A DNA stretch of 64,000 nucleotides from Psammoneis japonica (lineage: Eukaryota). The notes under the pieces are model-generated. The model worked only from the letters and a program-made list of their open reading frames with translations. It ran no database searches and had not been told where the DNA came from. The stretch lies in NCBI GenBank assembly GCA_008632985.1, contig QPGO01000025.1:62001-126000 (forward strand), given 5' to 3'. Positions within the stretch are counted from its first letter, which is position 1; every line of letters starts with the position of its first letter. A program made the translations under genes and the position numbers. Shown piece after piece: positions 12,900 through 35,388 of this stretch.

Positions 12900-14200
12900 T
12901 GTGAAAAAAAAACAAAGTCTACAGCTGTGATGCAATTTGTGGCAGGACAAATCCCGCAAGATTTTTTTGTAGTAGAATGCGGCACTTTTTGGACACCTCA
13001 CTGAAGCTGGCAGTTCAAATTTGTGGCTTGCATCTTCAAAGGTTTCAAGAGTGCCCCTTGATGCAGCTGTCTTGTTGGCCCAAGCAATCTGTCACACATC
13101 ACACCACACACATGGAGCAAAACCTTGTCTCCTTTCTTCATGTGCAGCAACTCAAACTTTCTGTTGATGCAGTCTTGCACTTGTGCACTTGCATTGCCAC
13201 AAAGCACTGTCATTGTCAGAGGGTTCAGCACAAATCAACATGATGGTTGGCAAGGAAATGAAGTCACTGCAAGTTCGCAACCTGTGCAGTCCAGTCTTTG
13301 TGGCTCTTTGCAGGTGCCAGCCTGTGTTGCCAGATGCTTGCAATGTGTGTCTCTGCAACCATGCAACCAGGTCCTTGCAGAGCTTCTTGCAGCCAAATTG
13401 TGTGACCAAACTGCCAGTGTGGCTGTGTGAGTTTCACAATCTGTGGATCAGATCACTCTGCCAGACAAGAGAGAGTGCAAATTTGAGTCAAACATGGCAT
13501 GAAACAGACAAGTTCCAGAGAAAAATGTTGTTTTTGCAATTTTTCAATGGTCTCTAACTTTTGACTAACTCGCACCTTTTGGCCAGTGGGAACAGTGCAA
13601 AAATGCTTGTCACACACCTGCGCAATTTTGCACACTTTAACATTCCATCCAAGAGTTTGATGAGACAAGCGTGCCACAAAAAATGATGGGGCATCATCAT
13701 TTGCACAAAGTGTCTTTCAACCAAAGCAGTGGTGATGACATGAAAATCTGAGCATGAGTCACCTGATTGGAAGAACCACCATTTTCCTGCTTTTTTGTTT
13801 GTTGCTTTTTGGTGTGCATCTGCCAAATCCCACAGCCGGTGCATCTATGACATCAACAGCTGCCATGCAGTCATGCCACATTGTCAGCAACACAACACCC
13901 ACAGAGTGAGTTGGAGTTTGCTCTTTTTGCTGAATTCAGCACATGCTCTTTGTTTCACTTGTTGTTTGTGAGAGCATCAAGGAAAAAAAAAGAATGTGTT
14001 GAAAATTGGAGATGGTGGCTCAATCACCACAATCTCACAAAGCACCCAAAAAGGACACTTTGTTTTCACACTGGCTCAAATGACTTGGTGCAGCTCAGCA
14101 GAAGAGCCTGGCAAGAGCAGCAGCACCACATTCCTTCACACTCACTGGTGCAACATGGCGCCAATGTTCCACCCAGCAGCACCCAATTTTGACATGGACA
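12900..14200 (-). mobile_element. Degenerate dispersed repeat, family X copy 1 (class unassigned)
   Basis: 13141-13233 matches 21716-21810, and 13960-14137 matches 26321-26520. TpA/CpG-depleted. Confidence 0.6.
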
Positions 14201-15090
14201 GATGACCACATCAAATTTTCTGCCCATGCCCTTGCAGCAGGGATGGAGTGCACATGGAGCATGAAACAATTGCAGCCCATTTCTCTTTGGGAGGCAAGAG
14301 GTGTGTGGCAAGAGGAGTGGCAAATGGAGCATGAAACAGGAGGCAGCTCTCTTTTTCCATCACATGCCAAATGACCCTCTTTCTCTGTGTGGTTTCTGCT
14401 GGTCCCAACCCATGCATGTTGCTGTGCAACACTGGCTCACAAGTGCTGTGTGGCTTTGCTCAGCCTGGCATTGCATGGCACAGCAGCACACATGGTCTGG
14501 GACAAAGTGCAGTTGGCTCAAGAACACCAAAACAGCGAGTCATGTTTGCCACTGAAATTGTGTGCCCCAGTGCAAATTCTGCAGCAGCTGTGAAAGTTTG
14601 AACATTCACCTGCTGCAGCCTGAAAGTGAGTTCACCCAAGCTTGTTTTCCACAGCTCATTGGCTCAAGCTTGTTTGCTGCAGCCTCTTTCTCTGCAATGC
14701 AGCAAATGAACTTGGGCCAAAAGTCAAAAAAGCACATTGGCGTGTCTTGAACATCTTGACCATCTTGTCAAGTGCAAGGTCCAAATTCATGTGCCTTCTC
14801 TGTGTCTTCCATGCACTCATTGTCAGCTGCATGGCAAGCTTGAGTGCACTGTCTTGTGCAGCCACTTTGTGAACTTCTGCATGTGTCCCATGAGCATCAG
14901 CACCTCTTCCAACAACAAGCAACAATGGTCAACTGACTTTTTGAAATTCCCTTCCCTCTTTCTGCAACAGCCATCAAGGTTTTGGCGTTGGCCTTTTGGA
15001 GTGCCAAAACTTGTTCCATTCCTTCCCCCACCAATTTTGTGTGGCATTTTGGAGTTGAGATTGCTTGAGAACACCTGCTCAATGTGTGCC

Positions 15091-15120
15091 NNNNNNNNNN
15101 NNNNNNNNNNNNNNNNNNNN
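15091..15120. other. Assembly gap (30 N)
   Basis: Run of N. Confidence 1.
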
Positions 15121-15416
15121 ATTTATCTTCAACATCAAATAAACGGCCAAGTTTGTGGTACAATTATGCCTCTTACCACTCGACGTTTTTGCAAATGCAC
15201 CTGCCCTACGCGATTCTTAAGACATTATAGAATCGCGCTGTAACAAAAAATGTCAAAAGTTGTTGGACGGATCGCTCAATAAGTGTACCGTAAAATGACA
15301 CAAAATATCAAAAAAATCACGTAGAAATCTACGTGCGCGACATACGACGTGATTCAAAAAACTATCGATGTCACAGTTCAGTACCGTACGAGGTCCCACC
15401 TAGACCTGGAACGCGT
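15121..15416. mobile_element. Right end of a young TIR DNA element, unmutated, nested in the transposase relic
   Basis: Normal TpA/CpG content. 15318-15416 is homologous to 51034-51130 and ends in GAGGTCCCACCTAGACCTGGAACGCG. Confidence 0.7.
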
Positions 15417-15540
15417 CTGTTGCATCTTTTGTGAAATCTTCACAGGAGGCAGGCATTTCTGATTTCTGCAAGCTTGACATTTTCCATGCAGCTCCCATGT
15501 TCATCCTTGATCCCCCCTTTTCTGCACCCCAGGGATTGCC

Positions 15541-16567
15541 ACTTTTCTACGCAAGCACCCACCAGCAACCCCTGCGTGTGTTTCTACGCGTGCTCTCGTG
15601 CTGATGTCGCCCTTTTCAGATGGCGTTTCGCTGAGTCCCCTGTCAACCTTTTGGCCCCTTCTGCCATTGGCACACCCTTTTATCTCCATGATGTGCAACA
15701 ATTTTCAGTGGAAAACGACTGGTGTCGACACTTTGTGGTTCGCATGCTTGTTGTCTTGTTTGGCAATTTTTTGCGGATTCGGTGCGATTTCTACACAGAA
15801 TCCAGTGCAAGTTCTGCACGCTTCAGAAANTATACACCGACAGTCATTACGCCTCCGATGCGATCAACTTCCATCCTCACCGAAGCCCCCAATTTCTTTA
15901 CTCCCACTGCTGCTCAAGTTCTTCACCTCATGTGGTGAAAGTGCTGTCCCTGTTGTGGCGCCTGCGAGTGTTCGCATGGATGAACCATTGGCATCATCTG
16001 ACGACCGTCCATTTGCTGCGCGGATCGGCTTTTCTACACAAGATTCAGCGTCAATTCTACGTGAGAACAACATTTCTTCTGACGACCTTCTCGTCACATC
16101 ACCAAGACTTCCCATTTCATCCTTGCAAGTCACGAACATCCCCTTTTCTGCTTGCTGGCCTGCCAAGATCACTGTTCCGAGCAGTGAACTGCACATTGTT
16201 GTTTTGGTTCATGCAATTGTGAAATTCAACCAGTCTTTGTTGAAGACAAGATTCTCCCTCAGAGGCAAAGATTTTCTCTCAGAGCATGCGCTGACTTTGA
16301 ATTCTCTGCTTGACTTGATTGTCCTTTGCTGTGGTGGTTTGGGTGCCTTGCATCCTCTCCGAAAGAAAGCAACAATCTCATTCTGGTGCAATTTTTCCTT
16401 GACCTTTTATCACTGGTGCGCGTCGCTGCAAAGCGGCGCATTGACCGACTGATCGCACGATGTTCTGCCGCACTCTCCTCGCAGGGTGTGCTGGAAGTGT
16501 GGGTTGGCTGGTGCCGGTGTTGCTGGGCAAAGGTGTGACAGCACTTAAAATTGGGTTTTGGTTTTTT
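15541..16567 (+). mobile_element. Retroposed, probably non-autonomous ~1-kb insertion sharing the LINE 3' tail; 18-bp TSD
   Basis: TGCACCCCAGGGATTGCC at 15523-15540 and 16568-16585. The 3' end CTGGAAGTGTGGGTTGGC..GCCGG..CAAAGG..GCACTT.AAA..(T)n matches 25132-25210. The host transposase reads through if the insert is removed. Confidence 0.8.
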
Positions 16568-19420
16568 TGCACCCCAGGGATTGCCTCAATCATTTCCCTT
16601 TCAGCCAGTGCTTGCAGCAGCCCCTTGGAATTGCCAAGCCAGCCTGGTGTCATTTTCTGTGCCTCCTTTTTTGGCTGGAATGTTTGCCTTTTCACATTTG
16701 ATTGCAGATCCTTTTGGCTGCACCCTTTTGAGTCACACAGCCTGGATTGCTTTCCCTCAGATCAGCCCACATTTCCTCAAGGAAGGAGCTTGTCAATGGT
16801 CTTGGTTTGGTTCGCGCTTTCATTGCAGCCTTTCTTCAGGATCCATGTGAGGTGAGGTCCTCTTCATCAACATCCTGCAACAAAACATGTCATTGGCATC
16901 TCTTGTCCACTTTGCAACTGGCAAGAGTTGTTGTGCTCTCCAGCACATTTGTCTGTCAGGGTGTGCTTGGTGTCATCTTGTGCTTCCTTCACCACCACAG
17001 GCTCATCTTCTTGTCAGCCAACAACCCATCCTTCTGCTGCTTTGAACAGCCCAACAAGTGGTCAAAAAAGAAGATGTGCTCAAATTCTGGCAACACAATT
17101 CACCCAGAACATTGGCGCAGTCCTCCAGCTCCTGTGTTGCCACATGGGTGCAATTCCAACATGCTTGGCAGTTCTGGCCACACTCAAATTTTGCCATGAA
17201 TGGGACTCATCTCTGAATCTTTCTTGGTGCTTCATCCCCTGACTTCTTTTGCTGCTTTTTTGCATGCACTTGGCTCCTGTCCCATTGTGATTGACTCATT
17301 TGAGCAGCTCTTGGTTCAGCCCTCACTGCAAGCCAGTCTTGCGACAGACAAAAAGAGAAAGCATGATGCTGAGGCCCTCATCTTTCAGAACAAACATGGT
17401 CTCACCATTTTGTCTGACCCAAGCCAATGGCCCTGTCTTGTTCCCACACAACAACCAGTTTTTCACCTGCAGGAAACCAAAAGCTTGCTTGGCTGCCACA
17501 CTGCTTGGCTTTCAGATCACACTGGGTTGTGCAATCTTTTCATGAAAGCCACTCTCCAGTTGCCCACATGAAACTCCATGAATGTGCTGTCATCTTGAGC
17601 AAATGTGGAGTTCTTCCATTGGGTTGGGGCCAATGATTTGTTCATGAGGTTGGCTGCTGCCGCCTCATCTTCCAGCAGGATTGGAGCCCCCACATGTGGC
17701 ATGACTTCTTTGACTCAAGTCACTCTTGGTGGTGCAGCTTGGTGGCTGGCTTCTCATGACCATCAATGCAGAACCACTTTGGTTTGTGAATGTGCTCAAG
17801 TCCAAGGAGGAGCCATGATGTTCTGTGGGCTGCTGCTGGTGCAGAAACAGAAAGTAACCCAAGTTTGCTCTGTTCAAGAAACAGACTTTTTGTGTCTTCC
17901 TTTTCTGCAGCTGGTTCTGGAGGTTTGCCCACAGACTTGGTCATCATCATCCAGCACCACACTGTCTTTGTTTGCACTCAGCAATGCCACAGGTGTGGCC
18001 TTTTTTGTGAGTGTGATTGTGCTCCAATTTGGCTGAAAAACCCCTCAAGTTCTTGATTGGGTAGCATGCAAAGCACTCTTTGCTTCTGGGCTCCAGCTGA
18101 AAAAGGTTGACAGTTGTGGCTCAGATCAGCTCTGGCAGCTCTGGAGAAAGCCACACTCTGTCTTGGCCAAACAATGATGTTGCTGCTGCACTGCACCTGC
18201 CAGTTGGCTGTCACTGCAATGCTGTCTTCTTTTGGCCACAAAGCAGCCGCCCAGAACATTGACGGCACTGATGCCAACTCACACCATCCTCAGCCTCATT
18301 TCCTTCACCCTTTGGATTGTCAAGGGCTGTCTGAAAGGCTGTCATGACACACAGCGGGTGATGCCAAGTGGCACCACCTTTTCAAAATTGGCAGCACCAG
18401 ATTTTTGTTGCCCTGGGTGTTGGACAAAACAGACTGACATCTTTGTGCATGATTGGCGACAGCAGACAAAATGCCAATCCTGTCTTGTGTCATTGCCTTG
18501 ACATTGACATCATTGGGGCAAACACAGAGAGCAGTGCACTGGTGTGGCGCATGACCATGTGTGGAGCCCCAGCAGCAGCCAAGCTGTGGCACAACCCCTT
18601 CTTGGCTGATGGGCCCAACTCTTCAAAACAGACATGTTTTCACCTTCTGTTGCCAGCATTGTTTTGTCCACTGTGACTCACCTGCTCTCACAATGTCTGG
18701 ATTGGCTGCAGGAAACTCAGGGAGCACCTCAGCTTGTCACACTGTTGACCTTCTCATGGTTTTCTTGACCACCTCACTCTGCAGACAGCGTCATTTTCTG
18801 TCATTGGCGGGCAAAGAAAACAATGACAGTGGGAGCCGCAGAGCAACAACAAGGAATTTGCCATCAACGACGTGCAAGTGTTTGGTTTTGTGCAGACTTG
18901 CATGACCCCTGCAGTGGTTGGCTGGTGGGTGCTTGGCATGACATGTGAAATTTTGCCCATTCTTCCATGAAGTTTCTCCACCTCTCTGCTCGAAACTTGG
19001 GCTCCCTCATCACAGAAACTGAGCTTTGTGAGGAGTTGCAGTGCTCCACCCAAAGTTCCGCTGTCTGACACAATGGCCTTGGACCCGCTTGCACACGAAG
19101 AAGACGAGGTGCCTTGACAGATGGATTGAGAAGGTAATCCAGGCCCCTGGCATCATCGTCGAGCGAGTTCTTCGTGGTCTCCGACAAAAAATGACGTCTT
19201 GTACCAGTTGCGTAGAAATCTACATGAAGTTTGATCGATGATCGATGCTCGCTCATCGCTCAATGATGCACTGACACATCATGATCACTGATCACGCAAC
19301 AAGCCAACTGGACAACATCAGGCCATCGCTGTTTCGCTGTTGTGGTTTCCAACTCCCATCGTTTACCTTGCGTTGCTGTCTTACGTGCTGCCATCCACCA
19401 CACGGACTGCTGGTCTAACA

Positions 19421-20263
19421 ATGTCCCCGTCTTTGCCGCTACAATCGAGAACTACGCCCGGGAACAACGGGGAGGAGTCAGAAAAGAAGCCTCCAGCTTT
19501 CCCATCAAAGAAAGAGGTTGCAGATTGCATTAAAGTGTTGTCTTACGTCGAGTACAGGCTCTCTCACGGTAAAAATCGGGACACAATTCATTCAAACCTC
19601 GAGGAGGTTTTGTTGAAGGTTGCCAGTATTCAGCATCATGCAAAAGAACTTGTACGGCCTGCGGAGGTGATCGCAGAAGAGACTGAAAAAGAAAAGGCCT
19701 TCGCCACGAAACGAAAGGCTCAAATGGAAGTTGTCAATCGTCTGGAAAAGAAGCGTGCTGAAATGGTTTCAGAATGCCGAAAATTACTTCCCAGAGGATA
19801 CACCGAAAAAGTGAGGCGCGAGGTGCTTCAAGAAATGGGATTGCCGTTGGACACGCTAACCATGGGTGACGTAAACTATAACCCCGCAAAGAAGAGCGCA
19901 AAGCGCAAGGCACAGACGCAAGCTCGTAGAGAAGAGAAATTGTGCAAGGCTGGCCCTGTTGTACTGGCGATCGCTGAGGCTAGAAGACGATGCCAGGAGC
20001 TTAAGAAGGACGGGAGGATTCCGAATGGCTCGACCGAGAGAATCAAATTGCAGGTTCTGGAAGAGTTTGGTTTACCTCCCGATACGCCCTTTCCTACAAA
20101 CTACCAGATAAAGACAAGGGGTGCTCATGTGAAGGTCACAAAAGCCCTGTCCTTGGACTCTCATGAGACGTCAAATAATAATGGTGTGGACGAAGGGGGA
20201 GTCGCGCGCACCTCGAACTCCACGGGAAATAATGCAGGGAGCAATGCGGGGCACTCAAAGTGA
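19421..20263 (+). CDS. Orphan basic protein family, copy 1 (~280 aa)
   Basis: ATG 19421 (MSPSLPLQ). Near-identical to 27184-27954 and homologous to 35389-36219. Internal duplicated motif P.G..E...(E/Q)VL.E.GLP.DT. Confidence 0.75.
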   Translation: MSPSLPLQSRTTPGNNGEESEKKPPAFPSKKEVADCIKVLSYVEYRLSHGKNRDTIHSNLEEVLLKVASIQHHAKELVRPAEVIAEETEKEKAFATKRKAQMEVVNRLEKKRAEMVSECRKLLPRGYTEKVRREVLQEMGLPLDTLTMGDVNYNPAKKSAKRKAQTQARREEKLCKAGPVVLAIAEARRRCQELKKDGRIPNGSTERIKLQVLEEFGLPPDTPFPTNYQIKTRGAHVKVTKALSLDSHETSNNNGVDEGGVARTSNSTGNNAGSNAGHSK

Positions 20264-21539
20264 GGTGACTTGATTGACGGCACAGTAGATGAGGCACTTG
20301 GAAGTATCTCTTAGTTTTACGGTACCTCATTGGCGAATGTGTAGATGGTGGAAAATTACGTTCATAAGGTACTCTTCTCATCCTTCGACGTGCAGCATCT
20401 TTTTGGATTAGCACGGGGCCCTGCTGGCGTCTTGGTCCTTTTTGTGAAAGGAAGTGCGACCGCAAGGAATTCGCCCTGTGGCAAATGTTAGCCTGAAATG
20501 TTGATTTCTTTTCTGCTGGTGTTATAGCAACAAAACCAACTTCTGAATCGGCTCCCATCTTGTCTGAACACGTGTGTTCACATGTCACCTGCTGGCCTGA
20601 GCTGATCTTTCTCTTCCACCAATCTTGACAAACAGTCTCGACTGCATTCCATGAGAGGGGGCTTCCAAAACCGCATTGACTCACATGTTCCTGATGCAAA
20701 CTTGAAACATCAATTTCTCATTTCTCTTCCATCGGTGTCAAAGCAACAAAACCAACTTCCAAGATGGCTTCCATCTCACATCTGAGCACATTGGCACATC
20801 ACTCGCTGGACTGAACTCAATCCTTTTCTTCTGCCCATCTTGAAAAATGTCTTAACTTTTTCCCAAATAACCAGCACAAAACTGCAATGCTGTCAATGTG
20901 CAAGAAATCAACCAGCACCATGAGTGGATGAAGTGCTGCATGGAAAGAGCAAAAGAAACAATGCAGTCATGTCAACAATGCCTCACTGAAGTTGGCATCA
21001 TTGCCCCATGTTGTGTTGCAATGCATGTGTGCCAATGCACGCAGGCAGCCATTGCCAAAAGAAAATGAATGTGGCATGACTGTGATGAGCAAGTGCAAAA
21101 ATGCACACATTGCATGGCTGTGATTCTGGCCAGCTGATTGCATGCTACACATTCGTTTGGCATGTTTCACGAGAAAAACAATGTCACACACTTCTTGGCA
21201 AAGTTGTCAAGCTTTTCCTCTGCCAAAGCAAACACTTTCCTGAACATCTTTTGCACCCAGTCCACCAGGATTTTTTCTCAATTGAGAATTGCAGGTGTGT
21301 TTTTCCCACCAGAGCTTGGCCCAAAAATTCTGCAGCCACAAAGAGCACACCATGTGTGGAACCTGCATCTCAGAGTGGCGTTGAGAGCTCGGCCACAAGC
21401 CATCATTGCTGTTCACTCTCTGTCAAATTCCACACAATTTGCGCCATCCTCAATCATTGTCTTTGACCATCTGGAGCAAGAACACGCTGGGGTGGCACAG
21501 AGGAAAGAGCAGCAAACTTGAAAAAGTCAGCTGTTCAGC

Positions 21540-24500
21540 CACACATCTGAAACTTCCTTGATGACTCTTGGTTTGTGCAACAAATTTTGAGCAGGGTGGC
21601 AATGCTGCTCCATCCCAATGGTGCAAGAAGCTCACATCTTCCAAAGTTTCAAGAGCACCATGGTGCAGCAGTCCTGGTGGCTCAAGCATTTTGTTGTGTC
21701 ACACACACACATGCATGTGCAGCAACTCAAACTTTTCATTGATGCAGTCTTGCACAAATGTGCATTTGCATTGCCCACAAAGCACCATCATTGTCAGATG
21801 GCTCAGCACAAGCCAGCATTGTCAACAAAAAAAAAAAGTTGCACGAAGTTGCTGCAGGTTTGCAGCCCATGCATTCCACCCTTCATGGCTCTTTGCAAGT
21901 CCAAGCCTGCAGCAGCACTGCCATGCCCCTGCAATGTGGATCTCTGAAACCCAAACAACCAGGTTCCTGCAGCCAATCTGTGCTGCCAAATTGCTGGCAG
22001 CGCAGCTGCATGAGCTTTTTGCAAGCTGTGGATCAGATTATTTTGCAAAACAAGCCTTTTGCAAAACTCAGTGTTTTCACAAAAAGTGAGAAAAGCGGCT
22101 GTAAATCTGAGCTAAAAATGACATGTGTTCCTCCAACTTGCAAACATGTCCCAGCTGTGCATGCAGTGCACACAAAAAACATGAAAATTGTGCAGTTCTT
22201 TTTGGTCTCTGGCTTTCAACTGAACTTCTGAGTCTTTGCAAAAACAAGAATGTTTGCAACTCAGACAAGACTTGCGTGTGTGGCACAGTGTTGTTGTTTC
22301 TGTCACATCATCTCTGCTGCCTCTTCATTGCACCAAATGAGTTGCAACAAAAGGGACAGTTTCTGGTCTCTCTTCTAACCTGCAAGTTTTGCATGACGTT
22401 GTGCCATTTGAGCACAGTTGGCACACCCCAAAAAAATTGTTGCACATGCATTGTGGCAGCTGTTCTAGAACTTGCAAACTAAAAAACATTGGCTGGGTGC
22501 TGTTGTGTGTGCACGCCACAAAAATTTGAGCAACATTTGAAAAACTGCTTGTTTGCCCATGCATTGATCTTGGCACTTGCTTGTGGCCAGAGCACATTTG
22601 CAGCTGAGTCCTTCTTCATCAGGTGACATGTTGACCTCAACAGCAACACATCAGCACTGCTCCTTTGCCTCCAAACAGGCACTTTTTTCTCTGGTGTGCA
22701 CTTTTTCTTTGAGTTGACAAGTCAGGTTGATGTGTCATTTCTCCTTTGCCATTTGCAGCTGTTTGCATGAAGCCCAAAAATGCTGTGGAAGTGTGCTGCC
22801 ATTGTGCTTGGCAATTTGGCAATCATTTCATGACACAGCAACTGGCACTTCTTCTTCAGCCCATTTCTTCACCTTTTTCACATGACAAGTTTGACACACA
22901 ATGGTGGATTTCAGCACATGTTTTGCACACAGCTTTCTCCTGGCTGTTGCCAATGCCTTCTCCAGTGGACATGGTTGCCTCAACTTTCACACCATCCTCC
23001 TCAACAACGTTGAACAGACTGAGCCATGCCACCATGCATGGGGTCCTTGGGCGCGGTTGTGTGGATTGTTGTGTCATCAAGACTCAGCACGTCTGAAGGC
23101 TCCCTCAGGAGACTGGCTGGTCCCCCCATCCAAAATGAGGATGCAATGTTCCGCGCATTGGTCTCCCAATGAGCCACACTTGTGCGTTTGATCTCCCTTT
23201 GGATTTGACATTTTTCCGGTCCAGGACACCATCACCACGTCACTGCACCAGATCGAAATGGTTCCTTCCCCCTCCGACTCATCATTCCCGGTTGAGATTG
23301 ACCCCATGAATGATGGCAGATGGAAACATGTCCCCCATTGCCCGAAACTCTCAGTTGAAACAAATCCACCCTCACCCGACCTGTTCACAGACCGCTTGAA
23401 AGCATTGCCTTCCTGGGATTCCTCTCTCTTTTCTGACATTGATTTCCACATTTCCTTTTATGAACCAGTGGACCATTTTGCATCCAGTCGCCTGGTGGCG
23501 GGGAGTGACGAATCTGCACTTCATCAGGACACTGCCTTCAGATGGACTGTTACATTCAACAGCAGACCCTCAGTGGATTGTGCTGGTCCGGTGTTTGGTC
23601 AGTTGCCATCATCCCATCGGGCTGAGGCATGTGGTTTTCTTTCCCTGATTCGGTTTGTCTGTCATCTGATTGAGTTCTGCAAGATGTCACAGTGTGAAGG
23701 AGTTGACAACTGGTGTGACAACAAGGCCTTGGTCCAAGTTCTTTCCAGATTGTCCTGCAGCCGCCCTTCCATTGACCCATCAGCACAAGAGCATTCCGAC
23801 CGAGACTTTCATCTGTGACAGCATGATGCCAATGTTCTTTCATCCAATTGGGATGTCAGCAATGAAATGCACTTCACGCTTGAAGCCATTCCTCAGGCTC
23901 TTAATCCCTCCTCCTCCGGTCAGGCTCCGTCAACAGCTTGGGCAAAAGGACACCAGGACAGACAGGCTCCAGTGGAGACCCTCCCATTGAACACACAAGT
24001 CAACGTCCATGCAGATAAGTTGGCAGGACGATGCCAGGGACAACATGACTCAGACACAATGGAGGTGCTTCCCTTTCCCCATTGTCAATCATGCCTGTGC
24101 CTCAATGATGGTGCGGTCAATGCAGGAATGAAATCCACGGTCAGATGTGCCGCTGCAGCTCCCGCTCTCCTGGCACATGTTCGGGAAAGGAATGACTGGG
24201 ACGAAACTGTCACAGAAAAGAACGATTGGAAGGTCCATGCGACATCAGTGTGCAGGCATTCTAAGAAACATGTCTCCATGGTTAAACTTGTCCATGAGCT
24301 CCTCCCAACAAACAAGACAACACATCGGTGCAATCCAGTTTGGCCACATCATTGTCTTGCATGCGAATGTCCTGTGGAGGATCGAGACCATGTTCTAAGG
24401 TGTCCAGCCAATGAAGCCTGGCATCGCAAATTCCTGCAAGGTCCACACAAATGCTGTGACAAAATTGACACCATGCCGCCTCTTTGCGACCTGCTGTTGA

Positions 24501-26600
24501 CTTCACTTGAAGCATGGCTGCGAGGCAAGATGCAGTGTGAATCTGATGTCATCCCAATGCTGAGAGCACTGTGGAAAGCCCAGTCAGAGACAGGATGGCA
24601 GCAAGCATTCAATGGAAGGTGCTCCACCCTTTGGAAGGTGCTCCGCCCTTTGGAACGTTTTTCAGGAGATTCACCTTCGTGAGATGGGCCTGTTGGAGAA
24701 ACACAGGAAAGAAAATCGACCCCCTCCGGTTTGGGGAGTGCAGATGGGAACTTACATTTGGAAGTCCTGGTGGGAACTGTGGGAAGAACACAATCAAGAG
24801 GTTCACAGTCATGATGCAGATTCAAGGAAATCATCATTGCCTGTCAGGCGGAAGCTGAGCTCACGGCTGTTTACAACAAACGACAGGATCATTTGGCTAA
24901 AGATAGAGAGATGCTGATGGATTCAGTTGATGATCACATGTCCCACTCTACATTGCAGATTATGAACTGGGTTGCTGTGGTCAAACCACATCTGAAAGAA
25001 AGCCTGAAGAAGGCAAAGCGCGAAGTGCTTCATGGCACTTGCTCAATTGCCAGCTGTTTTGGATGGGTGTCATCTCACAGTGACGTCCCGTCTGGCTGAT
25101 CCCAGTGAGCTTCTGCACACTTAACTGTGCACTGGAAGTGTGGGTTGGCCGGCGCCGGCTCAGCTGGCAAAGGAGTGATGGCACTTTAAACACAGATCTG
25201 TTTTTTTTTTTCACACCATCCTCCTGTGCCAGATGGTGTTTGCACAAGGACAATGTTGGCATGCAGCACAGACCTCTTGGGTGCACAGAGATGTTGTGAG
25301 AGTCAGCATGACACAGCCTCCTCCACTCCCACATTTGATCACCACATGTGCAGCAAACTCTTGTCAGTGTGCAGCTGCTCCTGTGCACAATCTTGTGCCA
25401 AAAGGAGCTGCCAAGTGTGTGGCCCACACCCTGGAGAAACAGGCTGTTGTCATGTGTGAACACACGCAGCTGCTTTTGAACCAGCCATGTTGTGCTGGCA
25501 CACAAGCAATTTTCCACAACAACATTGGTGCAAATGCCAGCAGTGAGAAGCCACACCTGGGTGCACTCCACTTGCTTCTTGCTTCACTCCACATTTTCGC
25601 CAGCAAGGAGCACAGCACAGAAGCCCACATTGCAAATGAGCAGTTCTCACACACCCCTGCATTCTGTCAAACATGGCAGCATCATTTGCACAAAGTGCCA
25701 ACCAAAGCAATGTCAACACAACAAAATCTGCCCTTGAAGTGCCTGGCTGTGCAGCAGCATGCATTGCTGAGCAAATGAAATTCCACATGTTCACAATCAC
25801 ACATTGTTGTTGCGCATGTCAGTCGCATGACAATCGTGGATGCACACAAAAAAGTCAGATGGATCACACAGAATTGAGATCAGATGCCCAAAATTGCAAA
25901 TGCAGTTGACAGACAATGTTGACACATGAGAAGTCAATGTTGGTTGCATTCAGACAATCTGTTGTCATGATCAGATTCTCTGCAAGGCCTTCTTTGTTCT
26001 GAAGGAGCAGCTCAAATGCTTTGGGCCATTTAGAGCTCCTTCGGAGAATCCCAAAATCGCAGAGCAAAATTTAATCTCACAGTTTCCACTTTTTGTGAGT
26101 TGCTCTGCTTTCATTTGCACTTGTTGTTCAAGCACAGTGCAGCTGGGGTCATCATCACCTCCGCTGTCTTTTTTTGGGGGGGGGGGTTTTGGGCGTGCAG
26201 CTGCCAAACCCCACAGCCAAGGTGGGTGTCATGGCACCCTGCACGGCCAGCACAATGCAAGAGCATTCACAGAGTGCACTGATTTGTGCTCTTTTTGACA
26301 AGCTTGGTTGCTGTTTGCAACAGCACCAAAGAAACAAGAGTGCATGTGCTGAAAATTGGAAATGGCTTGACAACCACCATCTTGTTGGCTGTTCTTTGCT
26401 TTTTGTCAGCAGCCAAGCTCTCAACAAAGCAACAAAAAGGAGGTTTTCTTTTGTGCCAGCTTGGATGACTTGGTGCATGGCAGAAAAGCCTGTGGCAAGA
26501 GTGTGGTGTCACATTCCTTCCTTGCATGTCACCACAAAACACACAGGGTTGATGCCCCTCTCCCCCAGCACCCTGCACTTGAGACACGGCACAGACACCT
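21540..26600 (-). mobile_element. Degenerate dispersed repeat, family X copy 2, interrupted by a LINE
   Basis: Homology to 12900-14200 at both ends. TpA/CpG-depleted. Boundaries approximate. Confidence 0.55.
23002..25210 (+). mobile_element. 5'-truncated non-LTR retrotransposon (RNase H + CCHC knuckle; possibly Ambal-like) with oligo(T) end and 15-17 bp TSD
   Basis: RNase H motifs SDES..AF.W, SSHRAEACG, WCDN, KGHQD, NVHADKLA. Knuckle CLAC...EDRDHVLRC, then Q..GW..AFNGR. TSD (TT)TCACACCATCCTCCT at 22985-23001 and 25209-25225. Confidence 0.88.
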
Positions 26601-27183
26601 CAAAGTTTCTGCCATGTGCCACGACTCCTGCAGTGAGGGCAGGGTCTGTGTGTGTGTGCACAAGAGCGTTGAGCACCTGTGCCCTGCCTCTCTTTTGGAG
26701 GTGAGGAAAGAATGTGTGTGACACGGGCAAGTGTGGAAGGGAGAGAGCGGCAAGCAGGCGTGGCATGAGAAATGAGTGGTCCTTTTTTTCTGTAACATGT
26801 CAAATGAGCGGCCCGCTTTCTCTGTCACATGTTGTTTCCCTGTGATGTGAAGCGTGAAAAGGAGTTTCTACCGCATGCTTGATTTCTGCTCGTGACAATC
26901 CCCATAAGTCTCCACCAACAAAGGCAACACTGCGGCAACAGGACAACAACATCAGCCCGCATCGCTATCGCGCCGCACGCGCATCGCTGTTCTTCTCGTC
27001 GCTGTGCGCTGTGCTCTGTCTGTGCTGCTGTTCTTGTTCTGGTTCGATGTTGTACAGTGTATGTTGTTTACTTTTCTGCTGTTTATCGCTATTGTGGCTT
27101 GTTCGTATTCATCCCAACTCCCATCGTACCTTGCGTTGCTGTCTTACGTGCTGCCATCCACCATACAGAGTGCTGGTCTAACA

Positions 27184-27954
27184 ATGTCCCCGTCTTTGCC
27201 GCTACAGTCGAGAAACACGTCCGAGAACAACGGGGAGTCAGAAAGGAAGCCTCCAGCTTTCCCATCAAAGAAAGAGGTTGAAGATTGCATCAAAGTGTTG
27301 TCGTACGTCGAGTACAGGCTCTCTCACGGTAAAAATCGGGACACAATTCATTCAAACCTCGAGGAGGTTCTGTTGAAGGTTGCCAGTATTCAACATCATG
27401 CAAAAGAACTTGTACGGCCTCCGGAGGTGATCGCAGAAGAGGCTGAAAAAGAAAAGGCGTCAGCCACGAAACGAAAGGCTCAAATGGAAGTTGTCAATCG
27501 TCTGGAAAAGAAGCGGGCTCAAATGGTTTCAGAATGCCGAAAATTACTTCCCAGAGGATACACCGAAAAAGTGAGGCGCGAGGTGCTTCAAGAAATGGGA
27601 TTGCCGTTGGACACGCTAGCCATGAGTGACGTAAATTATAACCCCGCAAAGAGGAGCGCAAAGCTCAAGGCACAGACGCAAGCTCGTAGAGAAGAGAAAT
27701 TGCGCAAGGCTGGCCCTGTTGTAATGGCGATCGCTGAGGCTAGAAGACGATGCCAGGAGCTTAAGAAAAACGGGAGGATTCCGAATGGCTCGACCGAGAG
27801 AATCAAATTGCAGGTTCTGGAAGAGTTTGGTTTACCTCCCGATACGCCCTTTCCTACAAATTACCAGATAAAGACAAGGGGTGCTCATGTGAAGGTCACA
27901 AAAGCCCTGTCCTTGGACTCTCATGAGACGTCAAATAATAATGGTGTGGACTAA
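27184..27954 (+). CDS. Orphan basic protein family, copy 2 (C-terminus shortened by GAA->TAA)
   Basis: Near-identical to copy 1. Nucleotide homology continues to ~28200 (versus ~20450). Confidence 0.72.
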   Translation: MSPSLPLQSRNTSENNGESERKPPAFPSKKEVEDCIKVLSYVEYRLSHGKNRDTIHSNLEEVLLKVASIQHHAKELVRPPEVIAEEAEKEKASATKRKAQMEVVNRLEKKRAQMVSECRKLLPRGYTEKVRREVLQEMGLPLDTLAMSDVNYNPAKRSAKLKAQTQARREEKLRKAGPVVMAIAEARRRCQELKKNGRIPNGSTERIKLQVLEEFGLPPDTPFPTNYQIKTRGAHVKVTKALSLDSHETSNNNGVD

Positions 27955-28479
27955 GGGAGTCGCGCGCACCTCGAACTCAACGGGTAATAATGCAGGGAGC
28001 AATGCGGGCACTCAAAGTAAGGGTACAGTGGATGAGGCACTTGGAAGAATCTCATACTTTTTACGGCAGCTTATTCAAGAATGTGCAGATGGTGGAAAAT
28101 TACCTCACGTTCACAAGGTACTCTTCTCAGACTGCGACGTACAGCATCTTGTTGCATTAACACGGGTTTAGTAGCGTCTTCGTCCTTTCAGTGAAAGAGA
28201 CCGGATACGTATTATGATACCTTAAACACCAATCGGACAACTGCACCATGGGTTCACGGTGCAGAAGTTTTTATTTTAACTCTACAATGACCGAATGACG
28301 CGCACCTCAGCTCAATCTGATACAGTCTGTAGCTAAGCTGTAGAACAAACGAATTCTCTAAGTTTGAAACATGAATTTTCACTCCTCGATCACAGTCAAC
28401 GGCTGTTTTTCGGTGCGTCAGTGCCTCTCAAAAGTCGTGCGTTTTCCCGCAATTTTCTTGCAAAAATGGCCAGTGCCCC

Positions 28480-29213
28480 CCCAGCGTCAGGGGACAAAAG
28501 GAACGGATCTCTGACCCCCTCTGTCTCCTCTTCAGGTACAACATCAAGAGGCAAATGTGGCAATCATGTTGGTGGGTGGTGGTGGAGTGCCTGACTCACC
28601 AGAAAATTTGAGCGGCAAAGAGTGAGAGTCTGACAACCCAAGCCAGTTCCCAAACCTGGCAATTGTGTCAGTGTCACTTGCAACCACTGGAAGTGTGACA
28701 AGATTGTCAACTGGCAGGGAATGTTCCCCTTTTTTTGGAGTGTCCCATCATTTGCTGCTTTTGGGAGACCAAAACACCTGGGTTGCATTGGAGCCAGCAG
28801 TTTGTGGCACTTGATTCTCGTTGAAGGGGACAGGCACACTTCTTCCCTGGCATTTGCAACACACCAGGCAATTCAAGAAGCAAATGGAAGCCTGAGGTGT
28901 CAAGAAGAAGCCACTTCCATGGAAGAGTTAGAACATGCCACACCAGTCAATTTTTCTCATCTGTCGTGTCAAGGGAGATGCAAGGACTGCATCAGAGCAA
29001 ACATGGTTTGCAAGGTGCAGAGGTGTGTGAGAATGTTGCACATGGCACAACACATGTGTGCACTGAGCCACCACACCAGACAATCATCAGCTCATTGTGA
29101 CTGTCTGAGAACCACAGCAAGGTGCCACAAGCTTGCAACCAACTTCTCAACTCCTCAGCAACAAGCATCTGCCCTGAGTGCTGGTGCGTCTGTGGCACCA
29201 CAAACGCACCAGC
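28480..29213. mobile_element. Unclassified TpA/CpG-depleted relic ending in a 34-nt palindrome
   Basis: Composition as in the other islands; hairpin at 29180-29213. Confidence 0.45.
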
Positions 29214-29411
29214 GGACAGAAGTTCTTTGAGATTGCAAAATTCCAAGTTTGTTCTGGGTTGTTCTCGGAAGATGCCATCGCGACATAGGATCGGCGAGTA
29301 GTCTTCATTCACCATGGCTCGGCAAACCCTTGCTGAACTCCGCAAAGTATGGTAGATGCATCACAGAATCATTTTCTCTCGCAGAAGCAAAGGCTACTAT
29401 AGCAATGAGGA

Positions 29412-31192
29412 ATGAAATACAAGATAAGGAAAGGGAGTCCTTGGATTGATCCCGACACACCCGAAGCACTTCGCAGCGTCGTGAGCTTCCCGGAACTACC
29501 GTTTGACAACGATGTGAAACGAAAATTCCATTTGGTATTTTCCGACGAGTTTAACGTGGAGGGAAGGACTATGCACGATGGTGAGGATCCTCGTTGGACG
29601 GCCTTGCATTCGGATGATTTGACGAACAATCCGTTGCACTGGTACAGTCATGACGCGGTAAAGACCGAAAACGGAGTTTTGAACATAACATTGGACGTTC
29701 ATCCGGAGACATTTACCTACATGGATCGCGTCTTCCAGCAAGTCAAACAGAAACCCACGCAAAAGGAAGTTAATGTCACAAAGGAGTTTCGTAGTGGTAT
29801 GGTGCAGAGCTGGAACAAGTTCTGCTTTGTCGGGGGTATTATTGAAATATCAGCAAAACTTCCCGGCGATCCGAAGACCGGAGGCTTGTGGCCAGCAAGT
29901 AAGTCATCCTTTGGAAATATTAAGTGTGTGTAGCATTGACGCTGATCTCCTCTCGCTCTACAAAACTTATCTCTTACTTTACAGTGTGGATGATGGGAAA
30001 TTTGGCCCGCGCCACTTACCTCGACACCACCGATCACATGTGGCCCTTCTCTAACAACGTCTGCAGCGAGTATACGAGATATGCGCAAGAAATTAGTGCT
30101 TGCAACGATAAACCCGGCTACGGCATGCAGCCCAATCGTGGTCGAGGAGCTCCGGAGATCGACTTCTTTGAAGTCATGTATATGGATTTGCTACCCGATC
30201 CGCTACTGAGTGCATCGTTACAGGTTGCGCCTGGCAAGCCAACCAATCGTCCTTTCTTGGGAATGAAACCCAACGTTACATGGTATCACCCATTCTTGGG
30301 TAACGGCGGTAGTTTGAACGAGTATTTCTTTGGCACACGCACATACGATCCCAACAAGACCCTGGAGTACCAGACGGACACTGTTTCTGTGAACTTTTGG
30401 CTCAACGAATCCTTTTACACCGATTTTCACAAATTCCGCATTGAGTGGGAACCTCCGGTGGAAAATATCAGGAAAGTCCCTCTGCAATTAGTCGAGCTGG
30501 TTATATCAAATGGTTCATCGATGGAAATTTGATTGCCGGCATGTCGGGGGATGACTTACAAGAGATTTCACAGACCGAAATTCCGTCGGAGCCCATGTAC
30601 ATTTTGTTAATCAGGCTGTGTCCAAGGACTGGGGCTTCCCTGATGCTTGGTTCCTCAACTGCAAAAAGAAATGTTGGAGTTGTTTGGACCCCGCTTGTGA
30701 GTGTGCTCTACCAAATGGATTTTGCAGCAAGAACATTCCCGCCTCATTTGAGATTGACTACGTGCGAGTGTATCAGATTTGAAAGATCCCGGCCACATTT
30801 TAGGCTGTTCACCACCCTCTCGACCAACGGCGGAATGGATCGAGGGACACGAGGAGCGATACATATTGTGGCACAGCCCCCCAGGAACCAAACCACTGCT
30901 GCCTGTTCCAAGTGGTGGAATGGCTTGTTCGAGCGACGAGACCTGTGGTGCACTGATTGGCAGTGGATTTTGTGATACAACGAATATGGCTTGTCACTGT
31001 TTTGAAGGTTGGACTGGGCCCAACTGCCTTTCGGCATACACTGGAAACGCAAGTGTCATCTCCAACGCACACCGGTTCCTTGTTCGCGGTGCGATCGCTG
31101 TGGTAGCAGTTTCAGCGCTTCTTGTGTGGCGCACTTGCTGGCGCAAGAAAAAGCAAGGATACGAGACGCTCCCAGATTCCGCGCTAAATTAA
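29412..31192 (+). CDS. GH16 KRE6/SKN1-like beta-glucan transglycosylase with EGF-like domain and TM anchor (intron 29899-29984; ~3 frameshifts; 5' end unclear)
   Basis: WIDPDTP, LVFSDEFN, SGMVQSWNKFCFVGG, GLWPAMWMMGNLARATY, RGRGAPEIDFFE, IPSEPMYIL, EIDYVRVYQ and C.C..GWTGPNC, followed by a TM segment. Confidence 0.85.
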
Positions 31193-31459: not shown

Positions 31460-31660
31460 ACTAGTACGTAGAGAGATGGAGCTATGGTACATAATGTAGA
31501 ATAGTGCTCTACTACTCTAGAGAAGCAGGCCTACTAGCTCTAGAGGACTCTACTAGAGCTAGTCTCTAGCTAGAGAGTAGCTAGAGTAGCTATCATACTC
31601 TACTATTTTCTACTGCACTACTCTACTGTACCGCACTGCCTACTCTCTACTCTCCACCGG
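31460..31660. repeat. CTA/TAG-rich low-complexity tract
   Basis: About 20 TpA in 31501-31620 by hand count. Confidence 0.8.
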
Positions 31661-31733
31661 TACAGCACTCAATTTGACATTCAATGTTGAAATCTTCATG
31701 CACGCCCCGATGCAAGACGCGGTTAGATTAGCA

Positions 31734-33626: not shown

Positions 33627-34439
33627 CGTAACAGAGCCAAGGTGCTGCTGCGCCCAACATGAAGATGATTGCTCATGATCAAATCTCGCACCGACTCCTC
33701 ATTTGGGGTGTGGCAGCTGCTGCCATTTTTCCTTGGCTCCCATTCAACAGCAAATGGAGCATTGGCGGAAGGCTGTCAAACAATTTTCGCAAGCTTCTTC
33801 TCTCAATTGCAGTCATTGATTCACGCCGTTTGTTGGTCCATGGAGACGAGGTGCATTCTCATGCTTCAGACCTCTTCTCCAACACCCTTGGTGTTGTTGA
33901 GGTCATTGGACTGACCTTTCTTTGCTTTCTTGCTCCCCATGTCATGCAGACTAATTTGTCTGTGTTCACCCACCTCTGCCCTGGCGCCAGTTTTTACATG
34001 CCGCTCGTGGAGCTGGAGTCTTGAGCTTCTTGGGGGTGGTCCTTTCTCGCACAGTCAATCCCAGATTTTGGTGTCAAAAGAAACTGGCGAATGGCATTGC
34101 AGCACCACCCGTCATCACCATGGTTTGCCAGTGCAACTGTGTCATGACAGCAAGATTGCATGGACATGGCTTTGTCACTGCCCAAACCATGCTCCTCATT
34201 GAGTGCTGGCATTTGGGCGTGCAAGTTTTCTGTGCCTTCTCCCATGCCTTTGATCATTTTGCAAATGATCAGACCTTTGTGGCATGGGATGTGCTTTTGC
34301 ATTCAGCTCGATCTTCTGCTTTCCTTTCTGACTGGGTTCGGGTGCTAGTTCATGCCATGTTTTTGAACAGCCTTGATGAGCTCAATCACGTTGGATCCTT
34401 TCAGCCAGCAGGGTCAACTGGCTGCAAAGTTTTCTGCAG

Positions 34440-34708
34440 CAATCAGATTGCAATCAGTCATTTGCATCGCTGTGGAGCAGCAATTAGTTGATTGCAATTG
34501 TGCAGCGATTGCGCGGTCTGATGAACAGACCGCAAAGAAATCGAGCCATTTTGCTTGTTTCAGCTGTGAAAAGAGCTCGAATTTCGATTGCAATCGATTG
34601 CAACAGTCAACTGTGATTGCGACCTCGGCTCTTTCCCAACAATCAGGTTGTTGCAATCGAGTTTGCAACAGCAATTGCAATCAAAATGAGGCTGATTGCA
34701 GTCGATCC
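34440..34708. mobile_element. MITE-like insert built of GATTGCAATC / CAATCGATTG palindromic repeats
   Basis: Imperfect terminal inverted repeats ATCAGATTGCAATCAG .. CTGATTGCAGTCGAT. Many internal copies. CAGCA flanks both sides. Confidence 0.5.
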
Positions 34709-35388
34709 CAGCAATTGGTCAACACTGCTTTCAGCAGGGTGAACCCAGTGAAAGCGCTCTCCTGGACCTCCTGCCGGCAGTTGGACAGAACTTGTTCCTC
34801 TTGCTTCCAGTTCATTGTGACCTCTGTCCAAGTAAAAAAAGGCTGGAGCAAGCTCTGCACCAGGCAGACATGCACTGCCTTGGCACTTTTTGCACTGATT
34901 GGCAGCTCCTCTTTGAACTGTCATGAGCGCAGCTTGCTTTCTGCCAAAAATCCGTTTTGTGTGCAGCAACAACCAAACATGCGGCTTCACTTCAATCTTG
35001 AAACGTGATCAAACTTCTGCACAACACTGCAGCATGCAGAGCACGCAACTCTGCCGTAGAAGCCAGAGAGAGTGGCAGGGGGAAACAATCGTTCCGACAA
35101 AGAGAAACCATTGTTTGACTTGCGAAAAGATGATAAAGAATGAAAATGCCGGTGCTTCACATAATGTGTTATGTTATCCGGGTGGAGGTGGTAGGGACGG
35201 ACGAAAGTACAAAAAATGCGTAGAAATCACCATACAGACAGACCGCCACTGCGATTCTCACGCAATGGCTGCTACGGTAAGTGGCGACACCCACTCCTCA
35301 TCGCAGTTCGCTGTCACTGCTCACTGCTGTACGGTATTCACATGTTGAACATTGCTCGCTCCCTTTCTTACAAGCAGCTATTCTTATC

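Follow-up and report, generated by a model that had tools for sequence, protein, structure and literature searches.

Islands of altered dinucleotide composition

The window, that is, the whole stretch of DNA analysed, comprised 64,000 nt of Psammoneis japonica (contig QPGO01000025.1, positions 62,001-126,000 of the forward strand). It carried a glucan-synthesis gene, three copies of an open reading frame, a very high-copy repeat and two coding relics, as well as stretches with very few TpA and CpG steps. Such islands were called over the whole window by two-state segmentation on pyrimidine-purine (Y-R) steps. The features are listed below, with strand where one was assigned.

12983..15087: island 1, 4 TA and 9 CG in 2,105 bp, ending at a 30-N gap (15091-15120)
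15121..16480: very high-copy repeat of mosaic composition (from depth, copy match and segmentation)
16482..19080: island 2, 3 TA and 18 CG in 2,599 bp
19292..20260, plus strand: ORF, copy 1 of 3, normal composition, between islands, 92% identical to 27114-28197
20573..26722: island 3, 26 TA and 89 CG in 6,150 bp, with a LINE relic inside
22898..25105, plus strand: LINE-type non-LTR retrotransposon relic, 5'-truncated (from homologues and tblastn extent)
26908..27951, plus strand: ORF, copy 2 of 3, normal composition (from repeat comparison within the window)
28539..29260: island 4, 1 TA and 6 CG in 722 bp
29409..30529, plus strand: SKN1/KRE6-type glucan-synthesis gene (Pfam PF03935), normal composition, between islands
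31794-34503 and 34637-35042: islands 5 and 6, 14 TA and 45 CG together
33955-34488, plus strand: coding relic in the span of islands 5 and 6 (one homologue, P0273)
35281..36216, plus strand: ORF, copy 3 of 3, normal composition, about 68% identical to copies 1 and 2
50598..51842: island 7, 5 TA and 29 CG, with a converted copy of the high-copy repeat at 51034-51137
63462..63994: island 8, 0 TA and 14 CG in 533 bp, at the end of the window

The segmentation delimited ten islands (12983-15087, 15418-15540, 16095-16400, 16482-19080, 20573-26722, 28539-29260, 31794-34503, 34637-35042, 50598-51842 and 63462-63994) with a total length of 16,909 bp. They contained 53 TA and 214 CG, whereas about 628 and 970, respectively, would be expected at the density of the remaining 47,091 bp (1,750 TA and 2,703 CG). 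The observed/expected ratio (O/E) was 0.05 in islands versus 0.56 in the background for TA and 0.22 versus 0.99 for CG. That of TG/CA was 1.84 versus 1.15, TpG/CpA being about 1.6 times commoner in islands. The share of Y-R steps among dinucleotides was nearly the same (24.5% and 23.8%), as expected if TA and CG had been turned into TG and CA. No depletion of ApA was observed (AA O/E 1.24 versus 1.18), and the lower TC ratio of islands (0.93 versus 1.13) is explained by the loss of CpG. A rise in GC and a fall in AT and GA/TC were also noted, and both are by-products expected from the conversion of TA and CG.

The 500-nt bins flanking the islands contained 9-34 TA and 17-46 CG. Island boundaries could be located to within tens of bases, with genes of normal composition in between. 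Since both conversions stop so close to the neighbouring genes, the target appears to be a bounded domain and not the whole locus. The near absence of TpA and CpG described in the first-pass annotation was reproduced in the 500-nt table, including its count for 13021-13500 (0 TA and 1 CG in bin 13001-13500), and segmentation and O/E ratios also bore out its statement that neighbouring genes keep a normal composition. The block it had drawn at 15.4-19.1 kb held only in part, as island-like parts were found within a mosaic in which 15124-15414, 15548-16092 and 16408-16480 were normal or near-normal. In the high-copy repeat, the part 15124-15414 was normal (21 TA and 21 CG) and the parts 15418-15540 and 16095-16400 were island-like. 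In several places (16001-16500, 23001-24500, 34501-35000, 50501-51500 and 63501-64000) TA was near 0 with a CG O/E of 0.45-0.8.

The sequence of the islands was recovered elsewhere as well. In contigs of a public run, X1, these islands were present with about 99% identity and a unique depth of about 60, in contrast to a summed contig depth of 68,946 for bin 15168-15834 in the high-copy repeat. The contig over 12500-15090 differed in 18 letters and the one over 16584-19393 in five. Run X1 may be the source sample of the window itself, so this agreement backs the sequence, though perhaps not as an independent source.

Content of the islands and direction of change

A Pfam scan was performed for 138 ORFs, namely 43 of 120 aa or longer (39 of them within or next to islands) and 95 of 75-119 aa overlapping islands and their margins. 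The scan revealed no credible domain, of a transposable element (TE) or otherwise, in the islands, and no viral genes were found. The only strong match was SKN1/KRE6 in normal DNA (PF03935 in two adjacent frames, at 1e-36 and 1.4e-13), other matches being weak and at chance level, and no domain was found in the ORF at 19292..20260. No LTR and no inverted repeat of 40 nt or more was found within islands. Comparison of island with island, in nucleotides and in purine/pyrimidine code, yielded only three short matches, which indicates that the islands are not simple tandem copies. Because 138 island ORFs showed no credible Pfam domain, such converted DNA defeats homology-based TE annotation and inflates the apparent amount of 'unknown' DNA. 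The proposal that at least four unrelated TE types are affected had to be reduced to one identified type, the non-LTR retrotransposon relic in island 3. The other content consisted of one coding relic of an unnamed family and of high-copy repeats known from depth alone. The coding relic at 33955-34488 was 51% identical to P0273, with three of the four aligned Tyr residues replaced by His or Cys; a scan for P0273 relatives in viral contigs found none. An atlas look-up of the ORF at 34367-35005 was uninformative (best score 0.78).

The LINE relic (22898-25105) preserved about 700 C-terminal codons in one frame in tblastn, with five stops and two Tyr in 736 codons. Its ORF at 23819-24679 gave 1,370 homologues in a full HMMER scan and no match in a word-indexed search of longer proteins. 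Among six relic homologues scanned, Exo_endo_phos was detected in one and sub-threshold RVT_1 in two. Tyr accounted for 0.29% of aligned columns in the relic versus 3.09% in the homologues. In the 20 columns in which Tyr was commonest among homologues, the relic had TGY (Cys) in six, CAT (His) in three and Tyr in one, and it read His, Cys, Gln or TGA in their Arg columns. The DNA around the relic in island 3 was more thoroughly converted than the relic itself.

The direction of change could be followed in copies within the window. A core match of 106 bp linked the normal 15318-15423 with the island copy 51034-51137. In the longer alignment of the normal 15256-15423 with the island 50981-51137, 10 of 11 TA and 7 of 13 CG were converted, with 30 transitions and eight transversions over 171 columns. 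The possibility that consensus copies were already TpA-free was ruled out by this normal copy and by the absence of any Tyr-free sequence among 150 homologues of the LINE relic (minimum 0.77%).

Part of island 1 (13026-13542) proved to be a diverged paralogue of 21630-22139 in island 3. Fourteen TG<>CA doublets were found in 105 aligned Y-R steps of this pair, and 51 of its 85 transitions lay outside Y-R steps, next to 33 transversions. So many transitions outside Y-R steps mean that a large part of the island DNA is just old. Of the 40 listed differences between the window and run X1, 35 fell in islands, and those listed included eight CG<>TG/CA, five TA<>TG/CA and three TG<>CA doublets. Divergence from X1 was 0.2-1.1% in islands and 0-0.7% in normal DNA, hence not clearly higher in islands. 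The differences from X1, together with the TG<>CA doublets of the paralogues, suggest that conversion of TA and CG may be a continuing process.

TpA and CpG loss in related LINE copies

A set of 80 metagenome loci of related LINEs was used for comparison. Fourteen of them had a TA O/E of 0.30 or less, and all 14 had CG at 0.26-0.54 and TG/CA at 1.54-1.72, whereas their closest unmutated relatives showed TA at 0.65-0.89 and CG at about 1. Loci poor in CG but normal in TA were also present (L034, L069 and L032). In another locus, L020, TA fell to 0.05-0.17 in stretches with CG at 0.56-0.92.

The context of substitutions was counted within a single family comprising 21 related LINE copies, each cell being a copy at a site and not an independent event. 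A>G was found in 227 of 1,359 TpA cells (16.7%) versus 2.2-3.6% after A, C or G (3.5% at ApA), and C>T in 226 of 1,794 CpG cells (12.6%) versus 2.9-4.1% elsewhere. The enrichment shrank when only singletons were counted, to 1.47% at TpA versus 0.81-1.0% for A>G and to 1.51% at CpG versus 0.99-1.21% for C>T. Among 415 Y-R steps of the family, polymorphism included TA without CG at 90, CG without TA at 103 and both at only 15. Conversion per copy ranged from 0.54 to 0.93 for TA and from 0.50 to 0.71 for CG, with r = -0.11 over the 21 copies. TpA loss runs ahead of CpG loss and varies independently of it. At the level of whole loci, strong TpA loss was in all 14 depleted loci accompanied by CpG loss, which leaves room for a mechanistic link.

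The island Y-R steps included 1,904 TG and 1,974 CA with a flat runs test (z -2.4 to +1.7). Steps of TA origin in the family were read as 461 TG and 540 CA, and the runs test revealed no strand-coherent tracts among them (mean z +0.68). To judge from these counts, both strands are converted equally. Steps of CG origin in the family showed mild clustering (mean z -1.08). Composition and copy comparisons together agree with the core of the first-pass annotation, according to which transitions on both strands have turned TpA and CpG alike into TpG/CpA within discrete islands.

Origin of the islands and comparison with known systems

The composition of the islands is almost certainly of mutational origin, and we hold with good confidence that two separate processes lie behind the losses of TpA and CpG. 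The islands are probably repeat DNA rewritten by TpA-specific A:T>G:C hypermutation with a separate CpG decay. Repeat-derived nuclear DNA would thus be rewritten in place by two context-specific transition processes. The first would act on the DNA itself, changing A:T to G:C at TpA on either strand with equal chance and near to completion, sparing ApA, CpA and GpA. Most likely, a deaminase brought to repeat domains would turn adenine at TpA into inosine, although an adenine deaminase as the agent of TpA loss is only a tentative assignment. The second, slower and varying independently, would be CpG>TpG/CpA decay, most simply by 5-methylcytosine deamination in methylated repeats. The composition, the direction of change, the symmetry of the strands, the specificity for TpA, the separability of the two losses and the sharp boundaries are all shown by the sequences, whereas we infer the enzyme, the targeting by chromatin or methylation and the role in defence. 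The sparing of ApA and the likeness of the strands narrow the possible mechanisms.

The first process would be of the same kind as that measured in the chlorarachniophyte Bigelowiella natans (Mettrop et al., April 2026 preprint, bioRxiv 10.64898/2026.01.13.699255). In two viral regions, mutation-accumulation lines of that species acquired 231 mutations, of which 230 were A>G/T>C, and those were all at TpA, with a rate of about 6e-7 per site per generation; the preprint names no enzyme. TpA>TpG/CpA hypermutation is therefore not undescribed, as had been supposed, although that text mentions neither CpG nor diatoms. As far as our searches show, it is the one previous report of TpA-specific hypermutation of nuclear DNA. 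According to the preprint, the transitions likewise occur on both strands and not in other A contexts, and are confined to particular nuclear regions with TpA-poor, CpA+TpG-rich clusters. TpA-poor coding sequences of B. natans are enriched in RT and DDE domains, and here a LINE relic is affected. The host here is a diatom (Stramenopila), unlike B. natans (Rhizaria), and the identified targets are one LINE relic and high-copy repeats, against integrated viral DNA in B. natans, no viral genes having been found here. Depletion is near saturation (O/E 0.05) compared with a rho of 0.45 in the B. natans NCLDV region, and CpG is lost in the same islands (O/E 0.22), whereas the B. natans regions show almost no GC>AT. 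The CpG loss is read as a second process laid over TpA hypermutation. The B. natans rate comes from mutation-accumulation lines, while the diatom islands are known from sequence alone.

Fungal RIP is also transition-only, dinucleotide-specific, near-saturating and bounded to the element, and it ruins the coding capacity of repeats. It changes C to T mostly at CpA (CpG in some basidiomycetes) and makes TpA, with a rise in the TpA/ApT index, the opposite of the islands. Its substrate is duplicated DNA, it takes place before meiosis, and it relies on RID, a relative of DNMT4. Proteins of the DNMT4 type exist in diatoms. Classical RIP was rejected, as TpA was lost (O/E 0.05) and CpA/TpG gained (1.84). 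The decay of 5mC at CpG in vertebrates and plants, with CpG>TpG/CpA on both strands in repeat islands, explains the CpG side of the signature but leaves TpA untouched, unlike in the islands. Methylation of TEs is known in diatoms (Hoguin et al. 2023, PMC9998398).

A>G and T>C cannot be told apart from sequence because TpA is self-complementary. The same outcome would result if thymine at TpA were the target, being oxidised or otherwise modified (5hmU or 5fU, by a TET/JBP-type enzyme), mispairing with G and changing to C. In dinoflagellate DNA, 5hmU has been reported with a preference for TpA and TpC, and 5-formyluracil is a base that mispairs with G, both of which count in favour of this explanation. 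We consider it unlikely, since TpC was not strikingly lost (0.93 versus 1.13) and we know of no 5hmU/5fU-type modification in diatoms.

It is similarly unlikely that one dual-specificity deaminase recruited to islands acts on A in TpA and on C or 5mC in CpG. Such an enzyme would fit the presence of both losses in 10 of 10 window islands and in all 14 strongly TpA-depleted metagenome loci, and ADAT2 of amphioxus and Trypanosoma acts on A and C in DNA, as relayed by Mettrop et al. The two conversions were uncorrelated in the 21 copies, though, a TA O/E of about 0.1 accompanied CG at 0.7-0.9 in L020 and bin 16001-16500, and CG-poor loci with normal TA exist; the near lack of GC>AT in B. natans points the same way.

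Very unlikely is an origin without dedicated machinery, in which old heterochromatin has settled at the equilibrium that a passive, context-dependent bias of replication or repair would produce. Most island DNA is indeed diverged beyond recognition, states are graded among copies and strand runs are lacking, all of which would fit. Against it stand the copy with 10 of 11 TA gone and only eight transversions per 171 columns, the LINE relic, nearly TA-free although about 700 codons still read in a single frame, the sharp boundaries with normal intergenic DNA and, in B. natans, a rate raised about 1000-fold in only 11 of 15 lines (Mettrop et al.).

Enzyme-driven, local and context-specific mutation in the service of defence or diversification is known from AID-triggered somatic hypermutation with Pol-eta (WA motif) and from APOBEC3 acting on retroelements. 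The WA motif predicts loss of ApA, of which the islands showed none, so the suggested Pol-eta WA>WG candidate is disfavoured (AA O/E 1.24 versus 1.18; A>G 3.5% at ApA versus 16.7% at TpA). APOBEC acts on C in strand-coherent tracts, in contrast to the steps of TA origin.

ADAR- or ADAT-like editing of retroelement transcripts before reverse transcription is extremely unlikely. The identified relic is a retrotransposon, and known A-to-I editing sites have a U before the edited A, but sense RNA would yield TA>TG only, whereas the relic has Tyr>His (three) beside Tyr>Cys (six) and the family 540 CA beside 461 TG. The DNA around the relic was converted too, and CpG loss would be left without explanation. 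An artefact of assembly or base-calling, or elements always free of TA and CG, can practically be dismissed: a 30-N gap abuts one island and X1 may be the source sample, but X1 contigs match the islands at unique depth, the signature recurs in independently assembled metagenome contigs, a copy of normal composition exists and homologues use Tyr.

What is new here relative to the earlier report of TpA-specific hypermutation is the diatom host, the near-saturation, the co-location with CpG loss and the existence of environmental relatives with the same signature. The process is probably widespread, given that environmental contigs from related retrotransposons bear the signature too, and TpA loss can be separated from the decay of CpG in the same targets. 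It is a doubtful but conceivable extension that TpA hypermutation is an old defence of the whole SAR group (Stramenopila, Alveolata and Rhizaria), tied to CpG methylation, with the 5mCpG machinery recruiting a DNA-acting TpA-specific deaminase. If so, both self-complementary Y-R steps, every Tyr codon and the TAA/TAG stops would be erased from invading DNA. CRISPR tools, methylomes and histone maps exist for model diatoms, and the enzyme and its recruitment would be directly testable there if the process occurs in them.

Composition and content of the islands

Dinucleotide counts tabulated in 500-nt bins across the window and a two-state segmentation on pyrimidine–purine (Y-R) steps bore out the loss of TA and CG from the islands reported in the first-pass annotation. 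In the bin 13001–13500, no TA and one CG were counted, with 9–34 TA and 17–46 CG in the flanking bins. The ten segmented islands, whose edges could be located to within tens of bases, totalled 16,909 bp and contained 53 TA and 214 CG, versus about 628 and 970 expected from the non-island density (1,750 TA and 2,703 CG in the remaining 47,091 bp). The block at 15.4–19.1 kb proved to be a mosaic.

Observed/expected (O/E) dinucleotide ratios in islands and background
TA: islands 0.05; background 0.56
CG: islands 0.22; background 0.99
TG/CA: islands 1.84; background 1.15
AA/TT: islands 1.24; background 1.18

The share of Y-R steps in the segmentation counts was 24.5% in islands and 23.8% in the background and the G+C content was equal, which indicates that TA and CG were swapped for TG and CA and that the composition needs no further cause. 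Minor shifts in the islands, a higher GC dinucleotide and lower AT and GA/TC, are explained as by-products of converting TA/CG beside G, C, A or T.

Logan contigs of X1, a public sequencing run, spanned the islands with a depth typical of unique DNA (about 60), differing from the window in 18 letters over 12500–15090 and in 5 over 16584–19393. As X1 may be the source sample, these contigs support the sequence, with their independence not assured. A platform artefact was ruled out by separately assembled metagenome contigs carrying the identical signature. The window genes were long ORFs without interruption and were eukaryotic (PPR-Smr, EF1A-like, mitochondrial carrier and carnitine acyltransferase), with the best named homologues of the carnitine acyltransferase coming from diatoms (Amphora 48%, Chaetoceros 46%, Cyclotella 44%, Nitzschia and Seminavis). 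The window was taken as nuclear DNA of a diatom, not of Bigelowiella.

Among 43 scanned ORFs of at least 120 aa, the 39 located in islands had no credible Pfam domains and none was found in 95 shorter ORFs (75–119 aa) that overlap island DNA and its margins. Homology between islands was limited to three short matches. The full HMMER scan of ORF 23819–24679 returned 1,370 homologues (top 1.4e-48); among six of them scanned for domains, one long one contained an AP-endonuclease and two had sub-threshold reverse-transcriptase matches. The following features were located in the islands and between them:

22898–25105, + strand: 5'-truncated non-LTR retrotransposon (LINE) relic, from tblastn, in a single frame with five stops
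33955–34488: second coding relic with one homologue
19292–20260, + strand: paralogous ORF, copy 1, normal composition, between islands
26908–27951, + strand: paralogous ORF, copy 2, normal composition, between islands
35281–36216, + strand: paralogous ORF, copy 3, normal composition, between islands
29409–30529, + strand: SKN1/KRE6-type gene between islands, two overlapping frames (29409–29930 and 29924–30529)

The depth of X1 additionally marked repeats at 15.1–16.5 kb (up to 68,946) and 23.2–26.5 kb (320–3,470). The recognised part of the island content comprised the LINE relic, the second coding relic and these depth-marked repeats, which falls short of verifying the at least four unrelated TE types of the first-pass annotation. 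The three paralogous ORFs (312–348 aa) were each located immediately downstream of an island and matched no Pfam family; copies 1 and 2 were 92% identical and copy 3 showed about 68% identity to the others. The double frame of the SKN1/KRE6-type gene could represent a short intron or a frameshift.

The summed contig depth of X1 reached its 68,946 within 15121–15834, versus about 60 in unique DNA, and this repeat adjoins a 30-N gap (15091–15120), with loose read ends running on into unseen sequence. TA and CG were normal at 15124–15414 in the very abundant repeat. Direct repeats of 51–198 nt (78–92% identity) were found at 47775–48361 near the start of a beta-lactamase/hydrolase fusion gene, and a repeat with a 39-nt period at 37878–38058 within a GYF-domain gene.

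Direction and sequence context of the change

Three independent polarisations, based on a copy pair, Tyr codons of the LINE relic and metagenome LINEs, agreed on the direction of change. The normal copy of the high-copy repeat (15256–15423) was compared with its island copy (50981–51137), the reliable core of the alignment being 106 bp. TA was replaced by TG/CA at 10 of 11 sites and CG at 7 of 13, among 30 transitions and 8 transversions.

TA is part of every Tyr codon, and the LINE relic retained Tyr at 2 of 736 codons, with 0.29% Tyr in the aligned columns versus 3.09% for the homologues; no Tyr-free sequence occurred among 150 homologues. Of the 20 columns where Tyr was commonest, the relic kept it in one and had Cys (TGY) in six and His (CAT) in three, and conserved Arg columns were now His, Cys, Gln or TGA. 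The second relic likewise showed Tyr replaced by His/Cys.

The scan of metagenome contigs yielded 80 related LINE loci. TA O/E was at most 0.30 in 14 of them (including two pairs of duplicates), all with CG of 0.26–0.54 and TG/CA of 1.54–1.72, and the closest relatives were normal (TA 0.65–0.89, CG about 1). One locus, L052, had an island beside normal DNA, the layout seen in the window.

For sequence context, 24 copies of one family among the related LINEs were aligned, 3 duplicates were dropped and differences in the remaining 21 were scored against the column majority. Counted as copy-by-site cells and not as mutation events, A>G was found in 227 of 1,359 cells at TpA (16.7%) and in 2.2–3.6% after A, C or G, and C>T in 226 of 1,794 cells at CpG (12.6%) and in 2.9–4.1% in other contexts. 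With singletons only, the enrichment was weak (TpA 1.47% versus 0.81–1.0%; CpG 1.51% versus 0.99–1.21%). Among 415 conserved Y-R steps, 189 were fixed as TG or CA, 90 varied between TA, TG and CA and 103 between CG, TG and CA, with TA and CG together at only 15. A small effect of the 3' neighbour was detected in the family (TAT>TAC>TAG>TAA), consistent with the residual window TA sites being mostly TAA/TTA.

TA-origin steps in the family gave TG 461 times and CA 540 times, and the window islands contained 1,904 TG and 1,974 CA without run structure. Error-prone synthesis of the Pol-eta type (WA>WG), a candidate in the first-pass annotation, is disfavoured by this symmetry together with the undepleted ApA. 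The symmetry excludes editing of sense-strand RNA before reverse transcription. The core inference of the first-pass annotation, the conversion of TpA and CpG to TpG/CpA by mutation, was supported.

Along the copies of the family L007–L068, the TG/CA outcomes of CG-origin steps showed mild clustering (mean z −1.08, down to −3.3 in single copies), which may hint at strand-coherent CpG events, although the copies were not mutually independent. No such clustering was observed for TA-origin steps (mean z +0.68).

Relation between the TpA and CpG changes

The data point to two processes with a common target, the TpA one being faster. Conversion per copy in the 21-copy family ranged over 0.54–0.93 for TA and 0.50–0.71 for CG and the two were uncorrelated (r = −0.11). 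TA O/E was about 0.1 where CG was 0.56–0.92 in metagenome locus L020 and in some window bins, and several window stretches in the 500-nt table had lost TA and retained at least half of CG. In the copy pair, which is young, TA conversion (10/11) exceeded that of CG (7/13). No strongly TA-depleted locus with normal CG over its full length was found among the 80 LINE loci and the window, which counts against full independence of the processes. Four metagenome LINEs (L034, L069, L032 and L071) had CG O/E of 0.24–0.33 with ordinary TA (0.51–0.66), the host organisms apparently undergoing CpG decay but lacking the TpA process.

Of the 40 differences listed between the window and X1, 35 were inside islands, including 8 CG<>TG/CA, 5 TA<>TG/CA, 7 other transitions and 6 transversions. 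Three adjacent TG<>CA doublets were also present, each requiring that one ancestral step was converted independently in two lineages. Divergence was 0.2–1.1% in islands, not clearly higher than the 0–0.7% of normal DNA; this similarity is expected with targets nearly exhausted and gives no evidence of a raised rate.

Published TpA hypermutation and a deaminase-fold ORF in the window

The only relevant paper on TpA hypermutation found by the full-text searches was that of Mettrop et al. (bioRxiv 10.64898/2026.01.13.699255), so the TpA process, earlier called undescribed, had already been reported in Bigelowiella natans. In mutation-accumulation lines of that species, two integrated viral regions took up 231 of 302 mutations. 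A>G/T>C changes made up 230 of the 231, all 230 at TpA, with a rate of about 6e-7 per site per generation, and they arose in some lines only. The genome contains 124 clusters poor in TpA and rich in CpA and TpG, ADAT2/ADAT3 were put forward as candidates, and 'CpG' and 'diatom' are both absent from the main text (bioRxiv 10.64898/2026.01.13.699255). For diatoms, TE methylation is attributed to DNMT5a, and DNMT4 proteins related to RID are described as having no known function (PMC9998398).

A member of the same protein family as the candidate mutator of B. natans is encoded in the window by ORF 57701–58303 (+ strand). It has a cytidine/deoxycytidylate-deaminase fold, and among solved structures its best matches were tRNA-specific adenosine deaminase 2 (3dh1, 1.5e-11) and TadA. 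Genes of the tRNA adenosine deaminase 2 type are housekeeping genes in eukaryotes, and the location of this one in the window is therefore probably a coincidence. For the islands themselves, we infer an enzyme and a targeting signal. Within the literature searched, the new elements are the TpA process in a diatom, its saturation, the co-located yet separable CpG decay and the environmental relatives.
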